The notes below the pieces were generated by a model. That model did no database searches and was not told the origin of the DNA. It saw only the letters and a list, made by a program, of their open reading frames with translations. Positions 28,623 through 29,885 of a stretch of DNA of 32,000 nucleotides are shown here, in pieces. Source of the DNA: Candidatus Heimdallarchaeota archaeon (GTDB lineage Archaea; Asgardarchaeota; Heimdallarchaeia; JABLTI01); assembly GCA_030614005.1 (NCBI GenBank), contig JAUWKS010000007.1, positions 30,001 through 62,000 of the forward strand, given 5' to 3'. Position numbers and translations under genes: made by a program. Within the stretch, counting starts at the first letter, position 1. Every line of letters begins with the position of its first letter.

Positions 28623-29885
28623 TTGTACAAAGTGATAGATATTGGCTTAGAAGCGCTTTTAATAATGGATAAAGCCGGCATACCTTTACTATTTCAAAAA
28701 CTAGATCCAAAACGAACAGATATCGAACCTATTTTACTATCTGGTTTTCTAACTGCTGTAAAGGCTTTTTCTATTGAGATAATCGATGATACTATTACAG
28801 ATTTCCATGTTGATTATGGGAAAAGATTAATTACAATCCTCTCAGGACACAAGATTGTTTTCGCAGCAATACACAGTCATAAATCAACTGAGAGAATAAT
28901 CCCTGTTTTAGCACCTTTATTGAAAGAATTTGAAAGCCAATACTATAAAGAAAACCATATCGGTGAATCAGGTCCATTAGAAAAGTATGAACCATTTAGA
29001 GAACGAATAGCTACTGTAATGGGTATTAACAATCCTTCGTTAGATTGGATCCCATTCTACACTGAAATTGATGAAGCAAAAGTAACTGATGATAGTAAAA
29101 TAAAGAATTTCATTGATAATCACTATTCTATTAAGGATATTGTAAACCACTGTAATCTCTCTGAATCAGAAGTATTAAATGAAATATCTAAGTTGTGGGC
29201 TATAGGTGCAATACGATTCCGGAATATTTTAACTCAAAGAGATATTGTCATTTCAACAAGTAAAATTGCAAGCTATTTGCAACCTTCAACAATTGAATGG
29301 AAAGAACTCTATAAGGAATTTCCAAACCTAATAAATATGATTCCCCATATTTTGAATCATCTGGATGGACAAACAACAGTAGGACACATTATAGATGATT
29401 TAGATACAGAAGGAATTGAGAATGTTTATTGGCTTATGGATTATTTATACATCAATGATGCTCTATCTATGCTTTCACCCGAAAAAAGAAGAATTCTAAT
29501 GGCTAAAGAAATTTTACAAAAAAGCTTAGAAATTGCTGCTGATATTTATTCTGTCGAGGAAACCATTTGGCACCTTAAATCTGTGTTAAATGAGATACGT
29601 TCTCCAGAAATAATTTCACAGATAAGACTACTGAAGGAGAACTGGTCCATTGACTATAGTTTTTTGGTATACGAAGGTTTGAGTCCCGAGAAAGTCTTAC
29701 AATTGTATGATATTTGGTTAGAAATTCTTAGAATGTTTATCTTTTCATTGGATGAGAAGAAAAGAAAAAAATATATCGAGTACCTAACTGAAATGCTTGA
29801 TTTTGATTTCTTCGAAAAATATCGAAGTGAAGACATGGATGGTTTCGAAGAGTTTGCCTTTTGGTTGGAATTAATATTTATTTGA
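28623..29885 (+). CDS. Longin-domain protein with tandem winged-helix domains (NPRL2-like architecture); start TTG 28623 or GTG 28632
   Basis: Longin ALLIMDKAGIPL...LLSGFLTAVKAFS; wHTH1 FIDNHYSIKDI..SESEVLNEISKLWAIGAI; wHTH2 HLDGQTTVGHII..VYWLMDYL; helical C-terminus. Confidence 0.72.
   Translation: MYKVIDIGLEALLIMDKAGIPLLFQKLDPKRTDIEPILLSGFLTAVKAFSIEIIDDTITDFHVDYGKRLITILSGHKIVFAAIHSHKSTERIIPVLAPLLKEFESQYYKENHIGESGPLEKYEPFRERIATVMGINNPSLDWIPFYTEIDEAKVTDDSKIKNFIDNHYSIKDIVNHCNLSESEVLNEISKLWAIGAIRFRNILTQRDIVISTSKIASYLQPSTIEWKELYKEFPNLINMIPHILNHLDGQTTVGHIIDDLDTEGIENVYWLMDYLYINDALSMLSPEKRRILMAKEILQKSLEIAADIYSVEETIWHLKSVLNEIRSPEIISQIRLLKENWSIDYSFLVYEGLSPEKVLQLYDIWLEILRMFIFSLDEKKRKKYIEYLTEMLDFDFFEKYRSEDMDGFEEFAFWLELIFI

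Follow-up and report, generated by a model that had tools for sequence, protein, structure and literature searches.

GATOR1 is the GTPase-activating protein (GAP) complex that turns mTORC1 signalling off, and the origin of its longin subunits is an unsettled point in the study of eukaryogenesis. A relative of these subunits is encoded by an archaeon, in a stretch of 32,000 nucleotides from a Candidatus Heimdallarchaeota assembly (contig JAUWKS010000007.1 of GCA_030614005.1, positions 30,001 to 62,000), which we refer to as the window. The gene of interest lies at 28623-29885 of this window, and profile searches together with a predicted structure support its being a true member of the NPRL2/NPRL3 lineage. 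It belongs to an operon, its constant companion is the gene of a small protein of no known family, and the second gene of the operon in the window encodes an ODP-family protein. We favor, with a probability of about 0.6, an interpretation in which the NPRL2-like protein and the small adaptor form a longin-based regulator of small GTPases, likely of the GAP type, that is fed by ODP in the lineage of the window.

The relationship to NPRL2 was originally proposed from a by-eye comparison of short sequence blocks. Since the single sequence gave nothing significant in searches of Pfam, NCBIfam and PDB, this match is visible only at the level of profiles and structures. The window protein falls below the curated Pfam thresholds of NPR2, NPR3 and HTH_NPRL3; these three models left the locus unmatched when run against the window's genome, and the NPR3 model found nothing anywhere in that genome. 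The family is made up of proteins of 400-430 amino acids, and all its members with a named source are labelled as Asgard archaea (Heimdall-, Thor- and Promethearchaeota) except one labelled Bathyarchaeia (P0015). A profile of 39 family sequences had its strongest match in PDB with human NPRL2 (E = 5.7e-5), and yeast Npr2 came next. When distant members were added, the resulting 55-sequence profile again ranked human NPRL2 first in PDB (E = 1.8e-8, 36.7 bits), aligned over 200 residues (query 88-287 to NPRL2 124-329), followed by yeast Npr2 (E = 5e-4), and the first unrelated chain, a MarR protein, had an E-value of 0.065. The match to NPRL2 is far beyond chance. HMMER aligned exactly the four blocks that the original prediction had quoted as colinear with NPRL2, namely DWIPFYT (residues 141-147), KIKNFIDNHYSIKDI (159-173), EVLNEIS...STSKI (183-215) and HLDGQTTVGHII (246-257), and paired them with blocks of NPRL2, among them ...PTPKV and SLSPGTTVRDLI. 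The alignment extends from helix alpha2 of the longin domain to the end of the second winged helix and includes the first. The likeness is not confined to a generic winged helix-turn-helix (wHTH) or a DUF4388 domain: the profile and Foldseek alignments both show a longin-plus-wHTH continuity with NPR2, and the DUF4388 model matched 0 of the 55 family members at E<=0.01. The HTH_NPRL3 model matched 13 of the 39 family members and the NPR2 model four; one orthologue (P0013, 61% identical) exceeds the curated HTH_NPRL3 cut-off at residues 156-183 (34 bits against 27.2). A search of 5.8 billion proteins with the broad family profile returned only Asgard proteins, owing to the word prefilter that it used. 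The Bathyarchaeia-labelled orthologue (60% identical; locus L058, DATKZI010000014.1) is accompanied by the full ODP module on a 447-kb contig, and its label is probably a taxonomic error, since the gene content of the contig suggests an Asgard genome.

The fold points in the same direction. The AlphaFold2 (AF2) model of the NPRL2-like protein (pLDDT 83.6, pTM 0.78) comprises a canonical longin domain (9-133), two winged helices (143-212 and 224-285) and a helical region (286-420). The longin domain has the topology beta-beta-alpha-beta-beta-beta-alpha-alpha, with beta1 at 9-16, beta2 at 21-26, alpha1 at 36-49, beta3 at 60-65, beta4 at 68-74, beta5 at 78-85, alpha2 at 86-106 and alpha3 at 119-133. 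A Foldseek search with this model, which had been suggested as a check of the prediction, placed NPRL2/NPRL3 or Npr2/Npr3 chains in the first 13 positions among PDB structures, over 335-510 alignment columns and with TM-scores of 0.23-0.30, which are low because the domain orientations differ. Among the Swiss-Prot entries of the AlphaFold database (AFDB), ranks 1-5 are NPRL2 orthologues, followed by NPRL3, with generic longins below; the alignment to human NPRL2 covers query residues 9-284 and NPRL2 residues 7-326 (E = 4.8e-7). In an exhaustive VIA comparison, the longin domain matched the 2dmw longin with Z 12.6 (root-mean-square deviation, rmsd, 3.4; 122 residues aligned), and the match to NPRL2 (8fw5_B) had Z 9.3 (rmsd 14.3; 251 aligned). 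The helical C-terminal domain is without a counterpart in the NPRL2 alignment, which stops at query residue 287. ESM Atlas feature searches with residues 286-420 and with the small protein gave no usable lead.

The constant element across the loci of this family is the small protein of about 105 amino acids, not ODP. The genomic pairing of the NPRL2-like and small genes is obligate: in all 110 loci with enough downstream sequence the two are found together (51 fused, 50 adjacent and nine with the small gene after ODP), a count in which the loci of two search routes overlap and are not independent. In loci of the Thorarchaeota type (Thor-type), the small gene directly follows the NPRL2-like gene and there is no ODP. 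A second Thor paralogue carries the fusion as single open reading frames (ORFs) of 526-533 amino acids, verified on the DNA of four genomes, in which the NPRL2-like part (about 3-422) is joined by a linker of ~25 residues to the small domain (about 445-529); the AFDB entry A0A524E274 (531 amino acids) is the same fusion. The small protein of the window is modelled as four helices and a tail (pLDDT 79.7). It had no match among Pfam families or PDB sequences, and only unnamed archaeal proteins among AFDB clusters. Its best structural matches, the N-terminal helices of H-NOX in the Foldseek search of PDB (E about 0.7) and a VIA hit with Z 5.8 (rmsd 2.5, 74 aligned), are within the noise for helical proteins. 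The idea that the small protein is homologous to the C-terminal domain of its NPRL2-like partner was rejected (hhalign probability 0.4%).

Complex prediction suggests how the two proteins may be held together. The pair of the NPRL2-like and small proteins reached an ipSAE of 0.68, compared with 0.00 for the best of three controls; of 80 solved complexes 58 attained the corresponding mark, as did two of 110 mismatched pairs, a calibration that is only roughly applicable because custom alignments were used. At least 86% of the contacts are shared between runs, and the pLDDT of the partner is at least 74. The small protein is predicted to bind the acidic C-terminal helices of the NPRL2-like protein. 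The predicted interface involves residues 385-420 on the NPRL2-like side, with the invariant D404, E409, F411, W414, L415 and E416, and on the other side R18, Y23 and residues 68-92, including the invariant T74 and P87; these are the most conserved residues of both proteins. The small proteins of the ODP-linked clade end in a polybasic tail (window 30898-30945; net charge +5 to +7, for instance SKKKKSKYRQK), which could be an element binding membranes or acidic patches. In Thor-type small proteins, the tail has a net charge of -2 in the one computed case (L021), and a helix-like LxSLxxF tail runs across the members in the family alignment A4.

The other partners differ between lineages. In the window, the ATG of the ODP gene lies 14 nucleotides past the stop codon of the NPRL2-like gene, and the order NPRL2-like, ODP and ORF of ~105 amino acids is kept in the orthologues found on long contigs. 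This arrangement is present in the window's own GTDB family (f1), in three genomes of f6 and in two closed genomes of f2. In a third f2 genome the small gene and ODP are divergent to the NPRL2-like gene; f27 shows a rearranged order (ODP, small, NPRL2-like), and the f7 cluster is partial, being cut off at contig ends. The ODP form is thus known from at least four Asgard families besides f1, in one of them as a partial cluster. In Treponema denticola, ODP senses oxygen and is coupled to chemotaxis (PMC7666581). The conserved gene order suggests that ODP gives a sensor input to the complex. At 82 Thor-type loci, of the adjacent as well as the fused form, the next gene downstream on the same strand encodes a GTPase of ~171 amino acids, which belongs to the Ras family (PF00071, E = 6e-45) and is below the Gtr1/RagA cut-off; in one locus of the adjacent form (L061) the NPRL2-like, small and GTPase genes are spaced by -4 and 26 nucleotides, and the SMTZ1-45 contig LRSL01000109.1 (L093) carries a Thor operon of the fused form. 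The G3 motif of this GTPase (L021:8058-8570 and homologues in the 82 loci) is unusual and reads W-D-L-G-S-Q, not D-T-A-G-Q. A subset of the Thor loci (L021:6791-8047, L063, L071 and L081) has a gene of the serine beta-lactamase family (PF00144) between the small protein and the GTPase.

In the interpretation that we favor, the NPRL2-like protein would dock the small four-helix adaptor of its own operon via its invariant last helices, and the complex would control the nucleotide state of a small GTPase, most likely as a GAP in the manner of NPRL2 or MglB, in which any arginine finger would be putative. In Thorarchaeota, the client would probably be the Ras/Rab-type GTPase whose gene is the next one downstream. 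In the Heimdall-labelled lineage of the window, the GTPase would be encoded elsewhere, and the ODP of the operon would feed a redox, oxygen or iron signal into the complex. The more specific possibility that ODP senses O2 or Fe(II) and, via the docked adaptor, switches the activity of the longin module on a Ras/Rab- or Rag-like GTPase is put forward tentatively, as we find it rather doubtful.

The GAP-type role is favored because of the homology to NPRL2 and because of a G-x-P element. Within the core family, G19 and P21 of the G19-I20-P21 segment are invariant and are found just before beta2; a similar G-I-P occurs in Roadblock/LC7 proteins. The catalytic arginine finger of NPRL2 (Arg78 in human, Arg84 in yeast) is carried by a longin loop, a seven-residue loop between beta4 and beta5. 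The strand order of the longin sheet is 2-1-5-4-3, and the beta4-beta5 turn neighbors the beta1-beta2 turn. Given this strand order and the position of Arg78, the beta4-beta5 turn would be the equivalent of the arginine loop in the Asgard protein. Every hairpin of the modelled longin sheet has 2-4 residues, and from beta1 to the aligned helix there are 80 residues in the query and 118 in NPRL2 (38 fewer, according to the profile and Foldseek alignments). The original prediction had warned that the arginine-bearing loop looked short and that GAP activity was uncertain, and these lengths make its caution reasonable, if by an argument from topology. A candidate functional residue is R68. Y65-G66-x-R68 is invariant in the beta3-beta4 hairpin of the core family; the R68 position is R or H in the fused Thor paralogue. 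The GP motif found just before beta2 in GAP-type longins, a spatial neighbor of the arginine finger, has been described as a marker of this type (PMC12290439).

Several observations weigh against this interpretation. The motif of the Asgard family is G-x-P, with one residue between G and P, and the turn that topology suggests as the match of the Arg78 loop consists of only three residues (G75-H76-K77), among which there is no conserved arginine. A longin-only profile (A3) had no significant match in PDB, NPRL2 included, so that the NPRL2-specific sequence signal is that of longin alpha2 through both winged helices, and in shape the longin domain is no closer to NPRL2 (Z 9.3) than to generic longins (Z about 12). 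DEPDC5/Iml1 was not found with the IML1 model in the window's genome, which is 90.4% complete. The operon of the window is without a GTPase gene, and the genome yielded nothing clearly orthologous to the GTPase of the Thor operon (the best match is 39% identical, among at least 17 small, Ras-like GTPases); the genome does contain several GTPases of the Gtr1/RagA type, and the GTPase of the Thor operon is itself of the Ras/Rab type, not of the Rag type. A conserved operon with ODP does not by itself show signalling between the proteins. Finally, two genomes (G177 and G092) have an NPRL2-like gene and no small protein nearby.

Some of these observations would fit a different activity. The same homology and the same complex are compatible with a longin domain that acts as a guanine nucleotide exchange factor (GEF), a passive scaffold or an effector platform, as in Ragulator, Mon1-Ccz1, TRAPP or the DENN type. 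The putative Arg78 turn without a conserved arginine speaks for such a role, as does the shape of the longin domain, which is matched equally well by NPRL2 and by longins of the GEF and adaptor types. Yet over its full length the protein is most closely related to NPRL2, which is the GAP subunit, and to NPRL3, the partner of that subunit, and the family has an invariant G-x-P where GAP-type longins have GP. Moreover, MglB, a GAP of the roadblock fold, works without an arginine finger, and by analogy an MglB-like mechanism would provide an alternative route to GAP activity. We therefore regard a GEF or scaffold as possible, with the odds against it.

It may also be argued that the small protein and ODP are mere neighbors kept by operon inheritance, and that the NPRL2-like protein functions by itself or as a homodimer. 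Gene order could be shared by descent among kin genomes, and the two genomes without a small protein near the NPRL2-like gene would agree with this view. Nevertheless, the pairing persists at about 35% identity, in three arrangements, in the permuted order of f27 and as a gene fusion. Gain and loss also go together within one genus, as four of the 10 genomes of the window's genus carry both genes and neither was found in the other six. The complex prediction, too, stands out against its controls and falls on residues that are invariant in the one protein and in the other. When 300 genomes of the phylum were sampled, the profile of the small protein picked out almost the same set as that of the NPRL2-like protein; four f2 genomes that at first seemed to have the small protein only turned out to have a divergent NPRL2-like gene beside ODP and the small gene, or to be cut by a contig edge. 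Simple neighborhood consequently seems an improbable explanation, and the association of the NPRL2-like protein with its small adaptor is preferred. In G092, a genome of family f5, the NPRL2-like gene (L144, contig C211) has neither the small protein nor ODP nearby, and Ras-like GTPase genes are found on both sides of it on the opposite strand.

Least probable of all is a role in transcription, as a winged-helix factor that carries a longin sensor domain, binds DNA to regulate the ODP operon or other genes and shares only generic domains with NPRL2: its two wHTH modules, the weak matches of distant members and of a paralogue on contig C9 (see below) to MarR, TrmB, HTH_45 and HTH_47, and a MarR chain as first non-NPRL2 match in PDB (E = 0.065) are outweighed by a match to NPRL2 that is seven orders of magnitude better, by a colinearity with NPRL2 that spans the longin domain and both winged-helix modules, by the tight operon with a GTPase in Thorarchaeota and by the charge of the protein. 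As the NPRL2-like protein has a net charge of -24 and both recognition helices are negative across the family (-2 each in the window protein; family means -1.1 and -2.9), its composition argues against DNA binding and would rather agree with winged helices used for protein contacts.

The coordinates of the module are collected in Table 1. The reading frame of the NPRL2-like gene is open over its 420 codons, with no interruption. GTG 28632 is a likelier start than the first start codon, TTG 28623, since GGAG is found 10 nucleotides upstream and the resulting product of 417 amino acids matches the gene calls of public databases. The closest records to the protein (87% and 84% identity) are labelled Candidatus Heimdallarchaeota. 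The stretch is present in metagenomes of marine sediment and cold seep from several studies; none of the sequencing runs that contain it is listed as RNA.

Table 1 Features of the NPRL2-like module in the window (positions are those of the window; residues are those of the NPRL2-like protein)
Feature	Position	Strand	Remarks
NPRL2/NPRL3-like gene	28623..29885	+	420 codons from TTG 28623; likely start GTG 28632; stop 29883-29885
Longin domain	28623..29036	+	residues 1-138; AF2 model, VIA, conservation
First winged helix, NPRL-type HTH	29049..29258	+	residues 143-212; aligns to NPRL2 ~172-252
Second winged helix	29292..29477	+	residues 224-285; aligns to NPRL2 up to residue 329
Helical C-terminal domain	29478..29774	+	residues 286-384; opens with invariant PEKRR motif
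Acidic C-terminal helices	29775..29882	+	residues 385-420, net charge -9; invariant D404, E409, F411, W414, L415, E416
ODP-family di-iron metallo-beta-lactamase-fold protein	29900..30631	+	Pfam ODP E = 2.4e-50; own GGAGG
108-aa four-helix protein of no known family	30622..30948	+	polybasic tail; 10-nt overlap with ODP end; family alignment A4

Upstream of the NPRL2-like gene and divergent from it (25580-28434, minus strand), the window encodes a HEAT-repeat protein and a tandem pair of Fe-S proteins of the reductive-dehalogenase/QueG type. The nearer of the two Fe-S genes is kept upstream in the contigs of P0013 and P0015, as are the HEAT gene and a GT2 gene. These genes are probably outside the module, because they are not conserved upstream in the contig of P0021.

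The window's genome (G000) contains other longin proteins. On contig C9 (L002:1474-2751) there is a paralogue of 425 amino acids, with a longin domain and two generic wHTH matches, in which R68 has no equivalent (its hairpin reads DRGDF). This gene is directly downstream of a Roadblock/LC7 gene (L002:1035-1448; PF03259, E = 4e-10), and a Gtr1/RagA-like GTPase is encoded ~3.3 kb upstream on the same contig (C9:570-980). The paralogue could be an NPRL3-like partner or part of a separate module. At least seven long proteins start with a longin domain matching the family (E 4.5e-13 to 1.6e-5), on contigs C87, C10, C64, C73, C71, C117 and C24 (L003-L008); their frames span 689-1215 amino acids, and the match on C117 has one internal TAA. 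These proteins fit the NPRL2-like longins fused to other domains that are mentioned by Liu et al. (bioRxiv 10.1101/2020.10.19.343400).

The question whether the architecture of the window protein had already been reported can be answered in the affirmative. Liu et al. (bioRxiv 10.1101/2020.10.19.343400; later Nature) described an Asgard family with a longin and an NPRL2-specific C-terminal domain, found in most Thor metagenome-assembled genomes and a few of Loki. The domain organisation and the main host are the same as here, as the relatives of the window protein are mostly from Thorarchaeota records (including SMTZ1-45 and AB_25), and it very probably belongs to that published family. The present lineage differs in that its nearest records are labelled Heimdallarchaeota, whereas that text names Thor and a few Loki; as far as accessible, the text mentions neither the small partner nor the fusion, the downstream Ras-like GTPase or the link to ODP. 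A literature search on Asgard archaea with NPRL2 or GATOR1 retrieved no further relevant paper. What the present analysis adds is the obligate small partner, the fusion and the alternative GTPase or ODP forms of the operon, for which we found no published description.

The module provides handles for the assignment of partners. According to Tran et al. 2024 (PMC10933270), the genes of Asgard GTPases do not, as a rule, share operons with longin or roadblock genes, so that regulators cannot be matched to GTPases. The NPRL2-like protein has a small partner that accompanies it obligately and for which there are a predicted interface and a Rosetta-stone fusion. The Thor operon adds a specific Ras/Rab-type GTPase, and in other lineages, the Heimdall-labelled one among them, the operon includes an oxygen/iron sensor protein. 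If the more doubtful reading given above, of an archaeal sensor-to-GTPase module built on a GATOR1-type subunit, is right, the Thor operon would be the first genome-defined pair of a regulator and a GTPase in Asgard archaea, and a logic that leads from a metabolic sensor through an NPRL2-type longin regulator to a small GTPase would predate eukaryotes.

Among characterized systems, the closest is human NPRL2 or yeast Npr2 in GATOR1/SEACIT (PDB 6CES, 7T3A-C, 8FW5, 8ADL), which gives both the best profile match and the best fold match and shares an N-terminal longin followed by two colinear winged helices. Compared with NPRL2, the Asgard longin core has 38 fewer residues in the span that matches, G-x-P takes the place of GP, and the protein adds an acidic helical C-terminal domain of ~135 residues that is predicted to bind the small adaptor; no DEPDC5 was found, and the operon GTPase of the relatives is of the Ras/Rab and not of the Rag type. 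NPRL3/Npr3, the non-catalytic partner in GATOR1, is similar in that the first winged helix matches HTH_NPRL3 (PF24064) and that its Foldseek rank comes just after NPRL2; its E-values are weaker than those of NPRL2, and its long inserts are absent from the Asgard protein. The Asgard GAP longins of the FLCN/SMCR8 type (PMC12290439) are likewise tied to eukaryotic longin GAPs and have a Gly/Pro element before beta2, but for these both GP and an arginine finger have been reported and the C-terminal part is DENN, whereas the present family has G-x-P, an arginine finger that is at best putative and NPRL-type winged helices. Finally, the ODP of T. denticola and its cognate chemoreceptor (PMC7666581) offer a parallel for a stand-alone di-iron sensor genetically coupled to a signalling protein. 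There, the partner of ODP is a methyl-accepting chemotaxis protein that feeds CheA; here, in an archaeon and with no chemotaxis genes nearby, ODP is coupled to a longin/winged-helix protein and a small adaptor.

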